Source: a virus. From it: DNA of 11,725 bases. The notes under the pieces were generated by a model. It was not told where the DNA came from and searched no databases. It saw nothing but the letters and a program-made list of their open reading frames with translations. Position 1 is the stretch's first letter; the number at the start of each line of letters is the position of its first letter. The stretch lies in the UHGV virus genome UHGV-0243446; one strand, given 5' to 3'. A program made the translations under genes and the position numbers. Below, piece by piece: positions 2,100 through 8,288 of the stretch.

Positions 2100-2747
2100 T
2101 CACTCTCCTTTGATGCGAATGCCAGCGGCGCGTGGCACATTAACTTCCACGATGCGCACAGTTGGTTTGTACATCTCAATTGCTGTCAGCCAGTCAGCTC
2201 CTGTCATGCGCTTTTCCGCATCGCCATTAGTCCACTGAACCGGTACACCAATAGCCTTCATCGCGATTTCTATTTCCCCGGCAATGGCGCTTTTTCCGCA
2301 ACCAGTAAAACCAGAAACAACGACAAGAACTTCACCTTTGGCTGGTTTTATTTCCCGTGCTTCCAGTTCTGCAATACGCTTACTCCCATCCGAGATAACA
2401 CCTTCGTAATACTCGCGTTGCTCGTTGAGTTTTGATTTTGCTTCCTCAAGCTCAACACGCAGCTTCCCTACCGTTAGCGCAATATCCTCGTTCTCCTGGT
2501 CGCGGCGTTTGATGTATTGCTGGTTTCTTTCCAGCTCATCCAGCAGCGCCCGAACTACATCAGCGGTTTTCTGGCACTGGTCAACAATGCTAACGTCACA
2601 ACCAGTATCGAAACCGTCCTCAGTTTCAAAGCGGAGCTCTACAGAGTCGCCGTCGATATCAGATGGTTCGAACCCGGCAATGTTTTCCAGAATGCCGATT
2701 ATGCTTTCTGCGCTATGACGTAATGCGCGTTTATCGATGTTGCTCAT
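2100..2747 (-). CDS. Coiled-coil accessory protein (215 aa), possibly Ea22-like, with C-terminal GxxxxGKS motif
   Basis: ATG at 2747 overlaps the upstream stop (ATGA). Central charged heptad-like region (ELEEAKSKLNEQREYYE...AELEAR). C-terminal GFTGCGKS matches the Walker A pattern. The Ea22-like assignment is from memory and weak. Confidence 0.55.
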   Translation of the reverse strand: MSNIDKRALRHSAESIIGILENIAGFEPSDIDGDSVELRFETEDGFDTGCDVSIVDQCQKTADVVRALLDELERNQQYIKRRDQENEDIALTVGKLRVELEEAKSKLNEQREYYEGVISDGSKRIAELEAREIKPAKGEVLVVVSGFTGCGKSAIAGEIEIAMKAIGVPVQWTNGDAEKRMTGADWLTAIEMYKPTVRIVEVNVPRAAGIRIKGE

Positions 2748-3262
2748 GACCGCACTCCTTTGCGAAGCTGGGAAGCAAAGTCAACTAACCACTCAGTCAT
2801 TTCAACCTTCCCTACCAGGTCTGAACCAGGGTGCATACAGCAATCACTCTGCGCCGCTTTGAAATCCTTATACTCATATTCTTGGGCCACCAGATTTTTT
2901 GCAGCTTCTATAGCAGCATCCACGCCCTGCGCTCGTACTTCAGCCAGGAAAGCATCGGTGGCTGGGGTGTCTGATTGCAGAAACTTTGCGCGATAGTCAT
3001 TCCACCCTCTTGCATACATGGGATTAACTTGCACTCCATCTTTTACGCAATATGCCTGCCCTCCACGGTTGATAACCTTGATTTCGTCCATAGCGCCAGA
3101 CTTCGGCCCCGCATTCTCCGCTGCCAGCGCCGCGCACTTGGCCTCAGCTTCAGCAAATTTACGCACCATATATTCAGCATTTGTTTCGTTAACCTTTAAA
3201 TCACATGAGATGCATTTACCTTTCAGAAATCCATCCATCTCAATTAGTGTCATTCGTTTCAT
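2744..3262 (-). CDS. Hypothetical protein (about 172 aa)
   Basis: Track ORF begins with GTG at 3280. An ATG about 3262 overlaps the upstream stop as ATGA, suggesting translational coupling. No recognisable domain. Confidence 0.5.
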
Positions 3263-3423
3263 TTCTTCCCACTCCGCCACATCGCATTCAGATATTTGTT
3301 TTGATTCACTGACGGAGAAGAATTTCTCTTAAGCAATTCCTCTCTCGATGGCATTGGCTTTACGCGTTGGCGAATAATCATTTCTTCCGGAAGAATGCCG
3401 GGATTGTATGCAAGTCCTCTCAT
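3259..3423 (-). CDS. Hypothetical small protein (about 54 aa)
   Basis: The track's 105-aa ORF (to 3576) overlaps the 3434-3730 gene by over 140 nt. An internal ATG about 3423 has a GAGGAA RBS 6 nt upstream and follows the upstream stop. Confidence 0.4.
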
Positions 3424-3433
3424 GGTAAATTCC

Positions 3434-3730
3434 TCAGTCATTACTGATAGCGCCATAGCGTGAGCGGTAATTACGCAGGCGCGGGTCGATATATTCAGGG
3501 AAGTGGGTATATGTGGCTTTGCGGAATGGTCGGATTGATGTCTGGTAAATTCGCTCGCGTTCTTCTTTCTCTGCAAGCCATATACAGTGGCGAAATTCCT
3601 TTTCCTCTTTCGTTTCCTGCGGTAGCGACATTATCCGATCGTAGTTTTTTCTGAATTTATCCAGCACCTCCGATACGGAATTGCCGGAACAGCGGCGCGC
3701 GTCATCCGCACCATACAAAGGCGCTGGCAT
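3434..3730 (-). CDS. Hypothetical basic protein (98 aa)
   Basis: ATG at 3730 with AGGAG RBS 6 nt upstream; directly follows the SSB stop. Confidence 0.55.
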
Positions 3731-3743
3731 GTTTTTCTCCTGA

Positions 3744-4250
3744 TTAAATTGCGTGAATAGCGTGACGAGGGAAGGGGAGAGTTACTGGTGCAAAGGGTAT
3801 ATCGTCGTCAAAATCCATCGGAGGTTCGTTGTGTTGTGCTGGTGATGATTGCTGCTGTGGCTTCTGTGATTGCCTGCTGGCTGCTTGTTGTTTGCTGTCG
3901 CCAATGCCGCCAAGCATTTGCATCACGCCATTAATTCCGACATGAACCTCGGTTGTGTAACGGTCTTGCCCTGACTGGTCTTTCCACTTTCTGGTTCTCA
4001 GCATTCCCTCGAAATAAATCTGATCACCTTTTTTCACATACCGCCCAACGACCTCAGCCAGTTTCCCGGATACAGCAACACGATGCCATTCAGTCAATTC
4101 CTTTTGCTCGCCAGTATTTTTATCTCGCCATTGTTCTGACGTGGCTATTGTCAGGTTAGCGAACGCTGTTCCTGATGGTGAGTATCGAACTTCCGGGTCT
4201 TGTCCTACCCGACCAAGGATAATCACCTTATTTACGCCTCTGCTTGCCAT
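3744..4250 (-). CDS. ssb: Single-stranded DNA-binding protein (SSB) with C-terminal extension
   Basis: N-terminus [13 protein letters not shown]...DPEVRY...TEWHRV...[11 protein letters not shown] closely resembles E. coli SSB, followed by a Gln/Ser-rich tail and [10 protein letters not shown]. The ORF then continues 15 codons ([15 protein letters not shown]) before the stop. Confidence 0.9.
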
Positions 4251-4958
4251 TTATGCCGCCTGTTTTAGTTCGTTAACTCTGATGTTCATTACCTGAACGC
4301 ATTTAGCCTGCGCCTCCTCGTTGCCAGCCATTAATTGCCAGTCACGCTGATAACGCTCGATGAGTTTTTTCTTGTCAGTTTCTGTTGACGCATAATCGCT
4401 GAAGTCTTTCAGGATTTGTTCGCAGTCAACCGATGGAGATTTCTGGTTGGTATTTTCTGGTGATGGTTTGTTATCTGATGCTGGGATTGCCCATCCCGGC
4501 AGCGATGGAGGAAGCCAGTAAAATCCTGTTCCATCCTTCAGTTTTGCCCTGTGCCACCCCTGCTTTTTATCGAGAGATGTTTGTGCGAAACCTTCCTCAA
4601 GGTTATACAGATACCGACCGATTCCCCATTGAACGGCAGCACGCTTCATTGCACCGGAACGACCACCTTTGACGGCTTCTACCTGCGTGTTTTCAGCAGC
4701 ATCCCATTTGGTTACCCATTCGGAATCAATCCTGATTGATATGCCGCATTCAACGCCTCCGTTGTTGGGAATATCGCGGTATTCATTGCGCCATCCTGCT
4801 TTGCCGCAAACATCGTCCAGGCGTTTCATGATTGCCCGGTTCGTGACATAAGCCAGCACCATAGCCCACACTTTGCCATCGCGTGTTTTACCGCTTTGCT
4901 GTATTCGCCATTCGATATCTTCAGGGCTGAATGGCTCATCGAATTTGTTCAAATCCAT
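4251..4958 (-). CDS. Rad52/Rad22-family single-strand annealing protein (phage recombinase)
   Basis: ATG at 4958 with GAGGTGA RBS. Core region (KWDAAENTQVEAVKGGRSGAMKRAAVQWGIGRYLY) resembles the conserved Rad52 annealing fold. Sits immediately upstream of ssb (TAAATG junction). Confidence 0.65.
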   Translation of the reverse strand: MDLNKFDEPFSPEDIEWRIQQSGKTRDGKVWAMVLAYVTNRAIMKRLDDVCGKAGWRNEYRDIPNNGGVECGISIRIDSEWVTKWDAAENTQVEAVKGGRSGAMKRAAVQWGIGRYLYNLEEGFAQTSLDKKQGWHRAKLKDGTGFYWLPPSLPGWAIPASDNKPSPENTNQKSPSVDCEQILKDFSDYASTETDKKKLIERYQRDWQLMAGNEEAQAKCVQVMNIRVNELKQAA

Positions 4959-5057
4959 AATTCACCTCAGAATGGACACGGCCCAAGGAAATAACGCTGA
5001 TTTAATACTTCGACTCGGGACAAATTAAGGCATACCCGCATTCCTTCGCGGTCACCA

Positions 5058-5216
5058 TTATGGCGACACCAGAGAGCTTTCTGCGTGTACATGCGTCTCT
5101 GTAACTTGCTCTCCTTCACTGTGGTTGCAAGTGACATGAATATCTCCTTCGTTACCGATTAATTCTTTCATCTGACGAATGAATTCTTCGTCTGACCAGT
5201 TATCTGTAAAACTCAT
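5058..5216 (-). CDS. Small protein in the kil position (about 52 aa)
   Basis: ATG about 5216 overlaps the stop of the cIII-like gene. It occupies the slot that kil holds in lambda; there is no sequence-level support for Kil identity. Confidence 0.35.
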   Translation of the reverse strand: MSFTDNWSDEEFIRQMKELIGNEGDIHVTCNHSEGEQVTETHVHAESSLVSP

Positions 5217-6238: not shown

Positions 6239-6439
6239 TCAGGCAGCCTTGTTATTCTGTTTACCAAGTTCTCTGGCAATCATTGCCGTCGTTCGTATTG
6301 CCCATTTATCGACATATTTCCCATCTTCCATTACAGGAAACATTTCTTCAGGCTTAACCATGCATTCCGATTGCAGCTTGCATCCATTGCATCGCTTGAA
6401 TTGTCCACACCATTGATTTTTATCAATAGTCGTAGTCAT
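6239..6439 (-). CDS. ral: Ral-like restriction-alleviation protein (66 aa)
   Basis: 66 aa, the same size as lambda Ral. Its start is overlapped by 17 nt by a 28-aa ORF, which matches the lambda orf28/ral arrangement as I recall it. Product MTTTIDKNQWCGQFKRCNGCKLQSEC... Confidence 0.55.
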   Translation of the reverse strand: MTTTIDKNQWCGQFKRCNGCKLQSECMVKPEEMFPVMEDGKYVDKWAIRTTAMIARELGKQNNKAA

Positions 6440-6517: not shown

Positions 6518-6817
6518 TCAAATAAGTGGTTTGCTGCCTAATTTCATTTTCTGGCGACCAACACAAGTCACACCCATTTCACTGCGTGGCTTGCTGTAGT
6601 AAATACGGTTCTGTTTACGCTCGACTTCTTCTGCCTTCTTGCAGCGAAGGCTTCCGAGTGATGCTGCTTTGTCTGCTCTGACGCAACCAGAGAGCTTTAG
6701 CGCAATTTTTCGCGCCAGTCGCTGTTCTTGCATTGCCTGTTCACGTTGAGCCTGTCTGCGTGCTCTGCGGCGATTTCTGGTGTTATCGTCAGCCAGATAT
6801 GTAATGACTACTGCCAT
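6518..6817 (-). CDS. N: N-family transcription antitermination protein
   Basis: ATG at 6817 with GGAGG RBS 5 nt upstream. N-terminal arginine-rich motif (TRNRRRARRQAQREQ). C-terminal region (RKQNRIYYSKPRSEMGVTCVGRQKMKLGSKPLI) resembles lambda N. nutL lies upstream in the leader. Confidence 0.85.
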   Translation of the reverse strand: MAVVITYLADDNTRNRRRARRQAQREQAMQEQRLARKIALKLSGCVRADKAASLGSLRCKKAEEVERKQNRIYYSKPRSEMGVTCVGRQKMKLGSKPLI

Positions 6818-7185: not shown

Positions 7186-7575
7186 TTAGTCAGCGAAGGT
7201 TAAGACGAGAATTACCTTAATGATGTCTGCTACAACAGACACGGCCATAGATAAACCAAAGACAATCCAAGCCATAGAGATGTCTTCACTACCATCGTAT
7301 AGAGTTCCGTAATCACTGGTGTAAGGCGTAAATGTCGCGCCTTGATACAACAGGTATAAGCTTGAACCATAGAGGATAAATGCAGATATCCCTTGTATTG
7401 CTATGATCACCAGAATCATGAAACGAGCTGATCTATGCGCCCAAGCCTGGCTTATTTTTTCTGATAGAGATTTCGCAATAAAAGCATGCGCTAAGCCGTA
7501 AATTGTCGAGATTTCCAACATCCCCAAAAAGCTTGCTATAGCGGTTCCAACCATAATCGCCCCTTGCGTGATCAA
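7186..7575 (-). CDS. Small polytopic membrane protein (3 predicted TM helices) in the rex/immunity-region position
   Basis: Track ORF begins with TTG overlapping the cI stop. An ATG about 7554 with AAGGGG RBS is likely the real start (about 122 aa). Three hydrophobic segments of about 22-25 residues. Downstream of cI on the same strand, as rexAB is in lambda. Confidence 0.6.
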   Translation of the reverse strand: MITQGAIMVGTAIASFLGMLEISTIYGLAHAFIAKSLSEKISQAWAHRSARFMILVIIAIQGISAFILYGSSLYLLYQGATFTPYTSDYGTLYDGSEDISMAWIVFGLSMAVSVVADIIKVILVLTFAD

Positions 7576-8288
7576 ACCAGCCTTAGTTTTGTCTCAATTG
7601 CAACGCCTATAATCTTGCAGTTTCCATTGATTGGCACGAGAGGCCATGCAGGATTAAGTCCCTTGAGGTATTTATTTCCGCCGTCGATTATCAGCTTCTT
7701 GAATGTTGCTTCGTTAGAGTCAGAAAGTTTTGCTATGACCAAGCTGCCGTTGATCGCCTCCCTTCCGGTATCGAAAAGAACGAATGTTCCCTCTGGAATG
7801 CTTAACCCAACCGGTGCCGTCATTGAATCACCTTCCACTTTAAGCCAGAACGCATTACCTTGAATATGCGCGTCAGACTCAAGCCAAACATCTATGTCTT
7901 TAATGGTGTATGGTTCGCATGCTTCACACCACGAGCCAGCCTGGATACTGCTTAACACCGGATACCTCTTTCCTGCTCTGTATTCCCCTGCATACCTTAC
8001 GTTGGCATCGCTCTTAAGGCTTTCTGCCTGTTCTGCAACCTTGGCAGCAATTGACTGGCTAAAATCAGCAATTGAGACTTGCAACAGTCGTGCAAAACCA
8101 GATGCAACCTCAACGTTTAGCGCGTTTCTGCCATTAAGATAATGCCCTACCGCTCCTTGGGTGATACCCAGTTCATCAGCGATTGAGTATTGGGTTATTC
8201 CCAATTCTTTCTTTTTTGACTCATACAAAGCCTTAAGCCGCTTAGCGTCTTCGAGCTGTTCTGTCGTCAGTGATTTTTTATTTTCCAT
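7572..8288 (-). CDS. cI: cI-type phage repressor (HTH N-domain plus S24 LexA-like autoprotease C-domain)
   Basis: N-terminus MENKKSLTTEQLEDAKRLKALYESKKKELGITQYSIADELG resembles lambda cI. Ala-Gly cleavage site in IQAGSW. Catalytic Ser in GDSM and Lys in FKKL. Start codon abuts the operator region. Confidence 0.92.
   Translation of the reverse strand: MENKKSLTTEQLEDAKRLKALYESKKKELGITQYSIADELGITQGAVGHYLNGRNALNVEVASGFARLLQVSIADFSQSIAAKVAEQAESLKSDANVRYAGEYRAGKRYPVLSSIQAGSWCEACEPYTIKDIDVWLESDAHIQGNAFWLKVEGDSMTAPVGLSIPEGTFVLFDTGREAINGSLVIAKLSDSNEATFKKLIIDGGNKYLKGLNPAWPLVPINGNCKIIGVAIETKLRLV

Follow-up and report, generated by a model that had tools for sequence, protein, structure and literature searches.

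Annealase, SSB, and Abc2 genes in the early-left operon of a lambdoid prophage: a probable HK75-type recombination module

The window, i.e., the whole stretch of DNA that was analyzed (11,725 nucleotides; 11.7 kb), is a fragment of one prophage. An annealase gene (SAP; 4251-4958, 235 aa) and an SSB gene (3744-4250, 168 aa) lie side by side on its minus strand, within an operon whose genes are all on one strand and are spaced by -4 to 13 nt (successive intergenic gaps of 8, 0, 13, 10, -4, and -4 nt). No terminator-like sites were found on the operon strand from 5416 to 2000. To the right of the module are genes for CI, Cro, CII, a replication protein, and a DnaB-type helicase, and Ral is also encoded in the window; CI, Cro, CII, and Ral make up a lambdoid context. 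The features, in the direction of the operon, are as follows.

4967-5137 and 5058-5216 (jointly 4967-5216), minus strand: two overlapping small ORFs (56 and 52 aa) at the position of P22 arf; phrog_1723 and phrog_2123
4251-4958, minus strand: SAP, Rad52/Sak type, 235 aa (Pfam PF04098, phrog_1097, identity to Sf6 gp28, AF2 and Foldseek)
4482-4958, minus strand: N-terminal annealing core of SAP, Sak/Rad52 fold, residues 1-159, including a conserved WxPPxLPxWAxP segment (homology to ul36 Sak)
4254-4424, minus strand: C-terminal three-helix domain of SAP, residues 179-235, homologous to the C-terminal domain of P22 Erf
4248-4261, minus strand: SAP/ssb junction, with SD-like AGGCGG (4261-4256), CA, TAA (4253-4251), and ATG (4250-4248)
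3744-4250, minus strand: phage SSB, bacterial-type OB fold, 168 aa (Pfam PF00436, phrog_44, alignment with the SSBs of E. coli, HK75, mEpX2, and epsilon34)
3792-3818, minus strand: host-like acidic tip MDFDDDIPF of SSB, residues 145-153, internal rather than C-terminal (translation and alignment)
3747-3791, minus strand: 15-aa C-terminal extension after the tip, conserved in related SSBs
3434-3730, minus strand: Abc2, anti-RecBCD protein 2, 98 aa (PF11043, phrog_656, PDB 8B1T)
3259-3423, minus strand: DUF2737 small protein, 54 aa (PF10930, E = 1e-28; synteny)
2744-3262, minus strand: 172-aa mosaic protein related to HK97 gp37 and the Ead/Ea22 family (phrog_614/368/492)

Neither of the two small ORFs at 4967-5216 had a match in Pfam, and in relatives they are annotated as Sf6 g29/g30 or as HK022 gp42-like. 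The PHROG label "recombinase" for these ORFs derives from position only.

SAP matched the Pfam Rad52_Rad22 profile (PF04098) over residues 4-136, well above the profile threshold (E = 7e-26; 91.4 bits, with a cutoff of 20.3), as well as phrog_1097 (E = 6e-130), and it is 100% identical to the gene 28 product (gp28) of Shigella phage Sf6 (tblastn). Its N and C termini agree with those of 26 homologues, which supports the SAP start. When the AF2 model of SAP (pLDDT, 83.6) was compared with the PDB by Foldseek, the top 16 matches were all human RAD52 or yeast Mgm101 (probability, 0.98 to 1.0; E, 3e-4 to 6e-3), with low TM-scores (0.22 to 0.48) that make the superposition approximate only; the predicted fold is that of the Rad52 N-terminal domain. 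By sequence, the PDB yielded a single weak match to a WW domain (E = 0.1), which we took to be chance or a local beta-hairpin resemblance.

The two parts of SAP have different relatives. The core is 58% identical to Sak of Lactococcus phage ul36 over 155 aa (E = 2e-66), and core homologues in Gemmatimonadota, Deltaproteobacteria, and Bacillus (47 to 61% identity) mostly lose homology at residues ~160 to 200. Beyond a low-confidence linker (163-175), the AF2 model has helices at 179-192, 196-209, and 214-234. In a BLASTP comparison with P22 Erf, only SAP residues 157-235 aligned, to Erf residues 134-205 (63% identity; E = 2e-30), with no similarity upstream of residue 157, and SAP lacks the Erf-type N-terminal DNA-binding/ring domain. 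Judged from these alignments, SAP is chimeric, joining a core like that of ul36 Sak to a C-terminal domain like that of P22 Erf, the latter probably being a partner-docking domain. The "Erf-like" names given to SAP in PHROG and RefSeq are labels of function and position.

The neighboring gene product has an N-terminal OB fold (PF00436; E = 5e-36; 123 bits; residues 6-104) and is 71% identical to E. coli SSB, whose N terminus it matches, supporting the ssb start. The DDDIPF tip is not at the extreme C terminus, as 15 residues follow it. By its OB domain, we classify the protein as an SSB with an atypical tail. The sequence-only reading had proposed a Rad52-like annealase directly adjoining ssb, and the homology of both proteins is confirmed by the profile matches.

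There are zero bases between the SAP stop codon TAA and the ssb ATG, as that reading had also noted, but the co-translation that it derived from TAAATG is an over-reading. The SD-like site AGGCGG lies 5 nt 5' of the ssb ATG, and no RNA structure that would occlude the ssb start was found at the junction (minimum free energy of -17.8 kcal/mol versus a shuffle mean of -18.3; z = 0.19). The stop and start codons abut, as obligatory coupling would have it, but the ribosome-binding site at the downstream start is neither missing nor sequestered. Obligatory SAP-ssb coupling is therefore not supported, and ssb translation may just as well start independently. Since an SD-like site of its own precedes ssb, any coupling is likely to be facilitative rather than obligatory: the abutting AGGCGG-CA-TAA-ATG would keep both genes in one translational neighborhood and would allow re-initiation. 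A zero gap alone is unremarkable, as the operon is tightly packed throughout.

The nonrandom feature is the conservation of the junction rather than the zero gap as such. We surveyed 21 enterobacterial genome loci with sequence past the annealase stop (L004, L006, and L008 to L024), plus phages HK75, mEpX2, and epsilon34. The stop codon was directly followed by the ssb ATG in 15 loci, a TAATG overlap was present in 3, and 3 had no ssb. Spacing was thus exactly 0 or -1 nt in 18 of the 21 enterobacterial loci, with annealase identity down to 50% and whatever the SSB subtype; six further loci have the same (3000/3001-type) junction. The consensus aAGGCGGCA-TAA-ATG is kept across the Enterobacterales loci, while the adjacent junctions (upstream ORF/SAP and ssb/next gene) are not conserved.

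This conservation may reflect history more than function. The junction could be a relic of a mosaic boundary instead of a coupling device, namely, a short shared sequence (Erf-type end, SD, stop, and start) that served as a swap point for abc1 or ssb alleles and persists by descent; we consider the chances of this to be only a little short of even. The P22 erf/abc1 junction, caggtggcTTAATG, is nearly like the SAP/ssb junction, caggcggcaTAAATG, although the downstream genes are unrelated. Furthermore, one junction precedes at least four SSB subtypes (the 168-aa extended type, the 157-aa Sf6 type, 152- to 165-aa types, and a divergent Yersinia type), and at one locus (L020) it precedes a non-SSB gene. 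The independent SD-like site of ssb and the lack of occluding RNA structure also fit such a relic. The constancy of spacing despite diverged annealases and varying flanking codons, together with the absence of conservation at the neighboring junctions, suggests instead selection on the spacing itself. Descent and selection are not mutually exclusive.

Downstream of ssb, three ORFs had been left unassigned by the sequence-only reading, which suggested that they supply a missing partner function. All three have relatives. The ORF at 3434-3730 matches PF11043 (E = 4e-61; 203.6 bits) and is near-identical over its full length (residues 1-98) to P22 Abc2 in PDB 8B1T chain A (E = 1.8e-55); the PDB and Pfam descriptions give Abc2 as an anti-RecBCD protein that binds RecBCD. 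The ORF at 3259-3423 encodes the DUF2737 protein, whose gene is usually next after abc2 in P22, HK97, HK620, and Sf6. The ORF at 2744-3262 belongs to a mosaic Ead/Ea22-related group: phrog_614/368/492 are all families of unknown function, homologues are named "hypothetical" or Ead/Ea22-like, and Pfam gave no match. Its AF2 model is mostly helical and of low confidence (pLDDT, 64.5), so that the lack of a PDB fold match by Foldseek (best E = 1.2) is a weak negative.

The suggestion of a partner just downstream of the pair therefore holds in the form of Abc2, an anti-RecBCD function, whereas none of the three ORFs gave a nuclease signal (Pfam, PHROG, and homologue names, with AF2 and Foldseek on 2744-3262). 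The further claims that no exonuclease is obvious in the window and that the set is distinct from lambda exo-bet-gam stand as well: Pfam and PHROG searches revealed no exonuclease gene and no Exo or Gam match among the window ORFs scanned. The rest of the window yielded only DUF551, Ral, CII, and subthreshold zinc-motif matches in the nuclease search, and a sibling prophage whose module is 99.5% identical contains no gene of the Exo/RecE type between its int and terminase genes. As the ORF at 3434-3730 is Abc2, the nuclease partner is most likely host RecBCD. By homology, Abc2 would recruit RecBCD as the processing nuclease rather than be a nuclease itself. Abc2 binds RecC (PMC12315714) and turns RecBCD into an end-preparing 5'-3' exonuclease (PMC5928155). 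The effect of Abc2 on RecBCD is established for P22 only. Chi sites, considered as a mark of Abc2-encoding phages, number 0 in the 11.7 kb, compared with 0.17 expected, too low an expectation for the count to be informative.

The gene set is already known, ordinary, and catalogued for lambda-like E. coli prophages. The module or parts of it occur in 1,108 of 5,426 complete E. coli genomes, 363 of which have at least 80% of its length, and the RefSeq annotation of the genes reads [quoted passage not shown] At the nucleotide level, the module is 89 to 97% identical to its counterparts in HK75, mEpX2, mEp235, Sf6, and epsilon34. The arrangement is not unusual either, as it is that of the published HK75-type lambdoid Rec module (PMC12315714). 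In Table 1 of that study, the HK75 type is positive for anti-RecBCD, SSB, and SAP and negative for nuclease, and it comprises 27 of 325 panel phages (PMC12315714). The window has the same contiguous early-left cluster and the same combination of functions. Gene content and order (small ORF, SAP, SSB, Abc2, and DUF2737) are shared with HK75, ECP1, and N7. HK75 itself is 99% identical in SAP, 99% in SSB, and 96% at the nucleotide level, and it shares the zero-base SAP/ssb junction and the 13-nt ssb/abc2 spacer. We saw no substantive difference from HK75 inside the module, whereas the flanks are mosaic: similarity ends at window position 5216, with different immunity and replication regions.

Other named systems differ by one or more parts. 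Modules of the ES18/epsilon34/mEpX2/Sf6 type (SAP, SSB, nuclease, and Abc2) have SAP (92% identity for epsilon34 gp36), the junction, and Abc2 as here. Between ssb and abc2, mEpX2 and epsilon34 carry an extra, optional Rv2179c/DnaQ-type 3'-5' exonuclease gene and Sf6 carries an HNH endonuclease gene, both absent from the window. The P22 arf-erf-abc1-abc2 cluster occupies the same PL-operon position, with a near-identical Abc2 and a similar post-annealase stop/start junction, but the annealing core is of the Erf type in P22 and of the Sak/Rad52 type here, ssb occupies the abc1 slot here, and the window has no Pfam Phage_Arf homologue upstream. HK620 hkaM-sak4-ssb-abc2 has the same order of small ORF, recombinase, SSB, and Abc2 (PMC5928155), but its recombinase is Sak4, a RecA-core ATPase that is not Rad52-like, and its SSB has no homology to that of bacteria. 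Experiments on the HK620 module showed that the cognate SSB stimulates the recombinase via the C-terminal tail of SSB and that oligonucleotide recombineering is unaffected by Abc2 (PMC5928155). In Lactococcus phage ul36, too, a Pfam SSB gene comes after the Sak gene, but the two genes share 8 nt instead of abutting as they do here, and Sak and the adjacent Ssb form a functional pair in Staphylococcus aureus phage 80alpha (PMC5499656). The C-terminal domains of these Gram-positive-host systems are unrelated to that of SAP (homology ends at residue 159), and they have no Abc2. Lambda Red (exo-bet-gam) shares the operon position and overall purpose, and lambda Beta is placed in the Rad52 superfamily (PMC3784561, PMC2896510); the window differs in lacking Exo and Gam, in having a phage SSB, and in the predicted fate of RecBCD, which Abc2 would redirect instead of blocking.

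SAP, SSB, and Abc2 are not an obligate trio, as seen from swaps between SAP and SSB and from loci without ssb or abc2. One SAP (99 to 100% identical) is paired with SSBs that either have the extension or lack it (L004 and L006 versus the window), and homologous SAPs have no phage ssb or no abc2 with them in P22, L013, L015, L020, and L086. Beyond the enterobacteria, an SSB within 4 kb of Sak was detected in one (L083) of ~59 loci, by phmmer with two SSB queries that divergent SSBs could escape. The next ORFs at the nonenterobacterial Sak loci are mostly uninterpretable high-GC frames; by inspection only, those at L050, L038, and L067 look DnaQ-like, possibly nuclease-like, and beta-clamp-like, respectively. 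The chimeric SAP and the conserved point of exchange downstream of the annealase provide a concrete case of the shuffling of partner domains and downstream genes in lambdoid Rec modules, which was explicitly left unanalyzed in PMC12315714.

Taken together, the region is very probably the Rec (homologous-recombination) module of the early-left (PL) operon of a lambdoid prophage, of the HK75 functional type, i.e., SAP, phage SSB, and Abc2 without a phage nuclease, working through Abc2 and host RecBCD. Homologues suggest how its biochemical steps would run. After induction, the operon would be read through from PL. Abc2 would bind RecC of host RecBCD, which may thereby become Chi independent and serve as the source of helicase and nuclease, converting phage double-strand ends to 3' single strands. 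Phage SSB would coat this ssDNA, on which the Sak/Rad52-type annealase may form rings and anneal it to the complementary strand. The outcome would be RecA-independent recombination and the formation of concatemers for packaging. As the module is standard and widespread, the main gain is that the "missing exonuclease" is accounted for as in the textbook case of P22, by Abc2 together with host RecBCD.

The main job of SAP and SSB might instead be phage DNA replication (a rolling-circle or recombination-dependent switch that yields concatemers), with genetic recombination as such, and the protection by Abc2 of sigma-form ends from RecBCD, being secondary; this emphasis is plausible, but we think it somewhat more likely to be wrong than right. 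In 80alpha, deletion of sak abolishes plaques and deletion of the adjacent ssb lowers the titer ~100-fold, both deletions reducing replication and concatemer formation (PMC5499656), and lambdoid Rec modules and anti-RecBCD functions have been tied to concatemer production and packaging (PMC12315714, PMC3784561). On the other hand, P22 requires erf only when the host is recA or recJ, according to a citation in PMC5499656. The annealing chemistry is the same in both cases, so the difference from the Rec-module reading is one of emphasis and not of mechanism, and the sequence distinguishes neither role.

Decay of the module into an inactive remnant in a cryptic prophage is very unlikely. The prophage is seen as a fragment only, and some relatives have truncated SAP genes (182 aa in L091; none called in L088), but all ORFs here are intact, as are start sites, SD sequences, and the CI/Cro/CII/replication genes, and the proteins are 99 to 100% identical to those of the plaque-forming phages Sf6, HK75, and mEpX2. 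Least credible is an unrecognized exonuclease downstream of ssb that would complete an autonomous annealase/exonuclease pair: mEpX2, epsilon34, and Klebsiella relatives do have an exonuclease (182 aa, Rv2179c/DnaQ type) at that position and the 2744-3262 model is too poor to exclude a novel fold, but that gene is cleanly absent here, the sequence switching right after the ssb stop codon, no nuclease motif is seen in 2744-3262, and the Abc2, DUF2737, and Ead/Ea22 assignments already largely refute the idea.

Only the SSB tail merits follow-up. The 15-aa extension is found in about 110 of the 120 closest SSB clusters, with the consensus [AS]P[VI][TG]L[PQ][FY][PG][RN][HN]x[IVL][HY]x[IL]-COOH. Across four distinct sequences, 10 of its 15 codons have synonymous changes, and replacements are conservative only. 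The motif is also found at the end of SSB-like proteins from phages of Cronobacter, Klebsiella (Vequintavirinae), Vibrio, and Proteus and of an SSB from an IncN plasmid. A phmmer search with the 39-aa tail against 1.84 billion representatives gave 16 matches, mostly fragments, the query being too short for mapping the distribution. Literature searches for the motif "LPFPRH" and for "DDDIPF" with "prophage" returned no description of the extension, which is apparently undescribed. Its presence was not correlated with SAP identity, Abc2, or the DnaQ exonuclease; all combinations occur.

Host partners of SSB (ExoI, RecQ, PriA, and chi complexes) need its terminal Phe carboxylate. We tentatively suggest, as an explanation that is more doubtful than probable, that the conserved extension is an SSB tail specific to mobile elements that reprograms which proteins SSB recruits by burying this carboxylate. 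Phage or plasmid ssDNA could in this way be shielded from SSB-recruited host exonucleases, or the extension could add a second docking motif; PVTLPF within it resembles the hexapeptide beta-clamp-binding motif, QLxLx[LF], of Hda (QLSLPL). Tail-bearing SSBs adjoin Sak, ERF, and RecT annealases, and a 406-aa protein of Vequintavirinae and SSBs of IncN conjugative plasmids carry the tail as well; if the suggestion is true, the tail would thus serve invading DNA in general and not be specific to this module. An altered choice of partners would bear on how phages and conjugative plasmids handle ssDNA intermediates. As the acidic tip, the partner contact in characterized systems, is not C-terminal here, known models may not hold for the contact between SAP and SSB. 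The Sak-core/Erf-tail annealase and its cognate SSB are a natural candidate recombineering pair for Enterobacterales, and SSAP portability depends on SSB tails (PMC5928155, PMC13490951). The SSB-1 proteins of Sf6 and ES18 are stated as not studied (PMC12315714). In Sf6, SSB ends at DIPF, and the 14-aa tail there is the C terminus of the HNH protein.

The window covers the immunity and early region of a lambdoid prophage, in which the following genes were found.

4958 to 4254, minus strand: annealase, 235 codons, stop codon TAA at 4253-4251 (Pfam Rad52_Rad22 and phrog_1097)
4250 to 3744, minus strand: ssb, 168 codons, ATG at 4250-4248 (Pfam SSB)
3434-3730, minus strand: Abc2 (PF11043, E=4e-61; P22 Abc2, PDB 8B1T, E=1.8e-55, near-identical over the full length)
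3259-3423, minus strand: DUF2737 protein, 54 aa
2744-3262, minus strand: mosaic protein, 172 aa, with relatives HK97 gp37 and Ead/Ea22
2100-2747, minus strand: Ead/Ea22 protein
6239-6439, minus strand: Ral antirestriction protein (PF11058, E=2e-48), downstream of the PL-like promoter
6518-6817, minus strand: arginine-rich N-like ORF, 99 aa, with the motif RNRRRARRQAQREQ and no Pfam match, downstream of the PL-like promoter
7186-7575, minus strand: hydrophobic 129-aa ORF, flanked by cI and the PL-like promoter (7040-7012), where lambda has rexB or exclusion genes
7572-8288, minus strand: CI-type repressor, right of the module
Right of the module: Cro, CII (PF05269), a replication protein, and a DnaB-type helicase

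The sequence-only reading had placed a Rad52-like annealase directly against ssb through a TAA-ATG junction, and this was correct, as the coordinates, the profile matches, and the identity to Escherichia coli SSB all agree. No bases separate the annealase stop from the ssb start. The annealase matches Rad52_Rad22 with an E value of 7e-26 (91 bits against a cutoff of 20), and the SSB matches its Pfam family with an E value of 5e-36; the latter is 71% identical to E. coli SSB overall, with residues 1 to 10 fully identical. From ssb onward, the downstream minus-strand genes follow each other with gaps of 13, 10, −4, and −4 nt. No terminator-like site was found on the minus strand between 5416 and 2000, and the genes therefore form one transcription unit. 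Two small minus-strand ORFs (4967-5137 and 5058-5216) share 80 nt, read in different frames. They belong to separate PHROG families, and each family bears the name "recombinase," seemingly because of its location, as with P22 arf; the annotations of Sf6 and mEpX2 include both ORFs.

This arrangement is an ordinary lambdoid Rec module that is already known, both published and annotated in RefSeq ("Rad52/Rad22 family DNA repair protein," "ssb," and "phage anti-RecBCD protein"). The 2.6 kb around annealase-ssb is 96% identical to HK75 and 89 to 97% identical to mEpX2, mEp235, Sf6, epsilon34, and others. Sf6 gp28 is identical to the annealase (100%), the HK75 protein is 99% identical to it, and the SSBs of HK75 and mEpX2 are 99% identical to the window SSB. 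Among 5,426 complete E. coli genomes, 1,108 matched the annealase-ssb-abc2 segment in full or in part, with at least 80% of the segment covered in 363 of them. A 2025 survey of 325 lambdoid phages sorted Rec modules into 13 functional types, and the gene content of the window exactly matches its HK75 type (anti-RecBCD+, SSB+, nuclease−, SAP+; 27 phages), the SSB-1 proteins of these modules being, according to the survey, without experimental study (PMC12315714). Unlike the window, ES18-type relatives carry an extra gene between ssb and abc2, which is a 182-aa Rv2179c/DnaQ-type 3′-5′ exonuclease in mEpX2, epsilon34, and Klebsiella prophages and an HNH endonuclease in Sf6. The absence of this gene from the window is clean, with divergence from the relatives starting right after the ssb stop codon. 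Only three features add to the descriptions that we found: the conservation of the junction, the chimeric build of the annealase, and, most notably, the extended tail of the SSB. Two loci with this enterobacterial prophage module, L004 (JAFADF010000066.1; annealase 100% identical), labelled as an "Actinomycetes bacterium" MAG, and L008 (CACSKA010000001.1; 78% identical), labelled "Chryseobacterium sp. 18061," are likely contamination or mislabelled assemblies.

In agreement with the earlier view that no exonuclease partner is obvious in the window, no nuclease family was detected in any window ORF with Pfam or PHROG. The suggestion that the three ORFs downstream of ssb could supply partner functions held for one of them: 3434-3730 encodes Abc2, but none of the three has a nuclease match. 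For ORF 2744-3262, AF2 gave a largely helical, low-confidence model (pLDDT, 64.5) with no PDB fold match (best E=1.2). In published work, Abc2 binds RecC and blocks the activation of RecBCD at Chi, and RecBCD with Abc2 becomes a 5′-3′ exonuclease whose processed ends serve the annealase of the phage (PMC12315714, PMC5928155). Given the presence of Abc2 and these published activities, homology suggests that the nuclease partner of the module is most probably host RecBCD acting via Abc2, which would explain the missing nuclease function. A sibling prophage in E. coli TUM1880 (L100, 14873-41525), with a 99.5% identical module, encodes NinB, NinG, and four or more HNH endonucleases and no Exo/RecE-type exonuclease from int to the terminase genes. 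It is integrated beside ybhC, in the lambda attachment region.

The zero gap between annealase and ssb is unremarkable within this operon; its conservation is the special feature. We compared the junction in 21 enterobacterial genome loci with sequence past the annealase stop (L004, L006, and L008-L024) plus three phages (HK75, mEpX2, and epsilon34). The stop was immediately followed by the ssb ATG in 15, a TAATG overlap was present in 3 (Yersinia and Sodalis), and 3 had no ssb. Six more loci, reached through SSB homologues, share the junction. Its consensus (aAGGCGGCA-TAA-ATG) is kept down to 50% annealase identity (Symbiopectobacterium) and before at least four SSB subtypes, and the junctions flanking the pair on both sides are variable. 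The proposed cotranslation of the pair reads too much into the junction: the stop and start abut and are conserved, making reinitiation plausible, but an obligatory coupling is opposed by AGGCGG, a plausible Shine-Dalgarno site 5 nt upstream of the ssb ATG, and by the lack of junction RNA structure beyond that of shuffled sequence (z=0.19). The junction may also behave as a mosaic swap point, as the P22 erf/abc1 junction (caggtggcTTAATG) has almost the same sequence before an unrelated gene. Reinitiation coupling and a recombination boundary are plausible as mutually compatible readings.

Judged from alignments, the annealase itself is a chimera of a core like that of ul36 Sak and a C-terminal domain like that of P22 Erf. 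Residues 6 to 159 share 58% identity with Sak of Lactococcus phage ul36 (E=2e-66), and homologues from Gemmatimonadota, Deltaproteobacteria, and Bacillus are 47 to 61% identical to the core, with similarity mostly stopping at residues ∼160 to 200. Residues 157 to 235 are 63% identical to the P22 Erf C-terminal domain (E=2e-30; the Erf-like domain maps to window 4254-4424 and its P22 counterpart to locus L092, 1801-2016), and no similarity to P22 Erf was found before residue 157. In the AF2 model (pLDDT, 83.6), the core is rich in beta strands and includes helices, residues 163 to 175 form a disordered linker, and the C-terminal domain consists of three helices; the best 16 PDB fold matches of the model were all RAD52 or Mgm101, with low TM-scores. 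A WW-domain-like stretch (GWHRAKLKDGTGFYWLPPSLPGWAIP; 4482-4574, residues 129 to 159) matches the PRP40 WW domain weakly (E=0.1). It forms three short strands in the model, is conserved in ul36 Sak, and probably belongs to the Rad52-type core instead of being a genuine WW domain. Neither a phage ssb nor abc2 always accompanies the Erf-type domain (P22, L013, L015, L020, and L086), and we infer that, if the domain docks, its target is more likely the acidic tip that SSBs share, or a protein of the host, than a module-specific partner.

Pairing of Sak and SSB has precedents. In ul36, the gene next to sak is a Pfam SSB with an 8-nt overlap. In Staphylococcus aureus phages, Sak and the adjacent Ssb are a functional pair required for replication/concatemer formation (PMC5499656), and full recombineering by the same-order module of HK620 needs its own SSB, via the SSB C-terminal tail (PMC5928155). 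The Sak-core partner genes may differ by lineage, since three nonenterobacterial homologues have no ssb after the annealase; from inspection of the translations only, the next gene looks like a DnaQ-like exonuclease in L050 (1-nt overlap), possibly nuclease-like in L038 (4-nt overlap), and like a beta clamp in L067.

The motif that is terminal in E. coli SSB is followed in the window SSB by 15 more residues (3747-3791, minus strand, after the DDDIPF tip). Of the 120 closest SSB clusters (Escherichia, Salmonella, Klebsiella, Citrobacter, and Enterobacter), about 110 carry this extension. When four distinct DNA versions are compared, 10 of its 15 codons have synonymous changes (including CGT/AGA for Arg) and the only replacements are V/I, A/S, and H/Y, which indicates that the peptide is translated and under purifying selection. 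SSB-like proteins of unrelated phages end in the same motif: the SSB of Cronobacter phage JK004, a 406-aa protein from a Vequintavirinae phage of Klebsiella, the SSB beside the ERF gene of Vibrio phage V039C, and a divergent SSB beside RecT in Proteus phage vB_BPM-V3. So does the SSB of an IncN conjugative plasmid; conjugative plasmids hold 89 of the 107 plasmid matches. Loci L095, L096, L097, L098, and L099 also have the extension. We found no description of the extension in the searchable literature. Proteins that bind host SSB hold its terminal Phe by the free carboxylate, and an extension would therefore be expected to alter or mask this contact. It is not needed for annealase-SSB pairing as such, because the same annealase is paired with SSBs both having and lacking it. 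In Sf6, ssb ends at DIPF and 14 tail residues form the C terminus of the next gene, HNH endonuclease gp26 (L094, 1366-1845), an identity already remarked on in the Sf6 annotation; it looks as if a mobile HNH gene was inserted between the SSB tip and the extension, splitting the tail from ssb.
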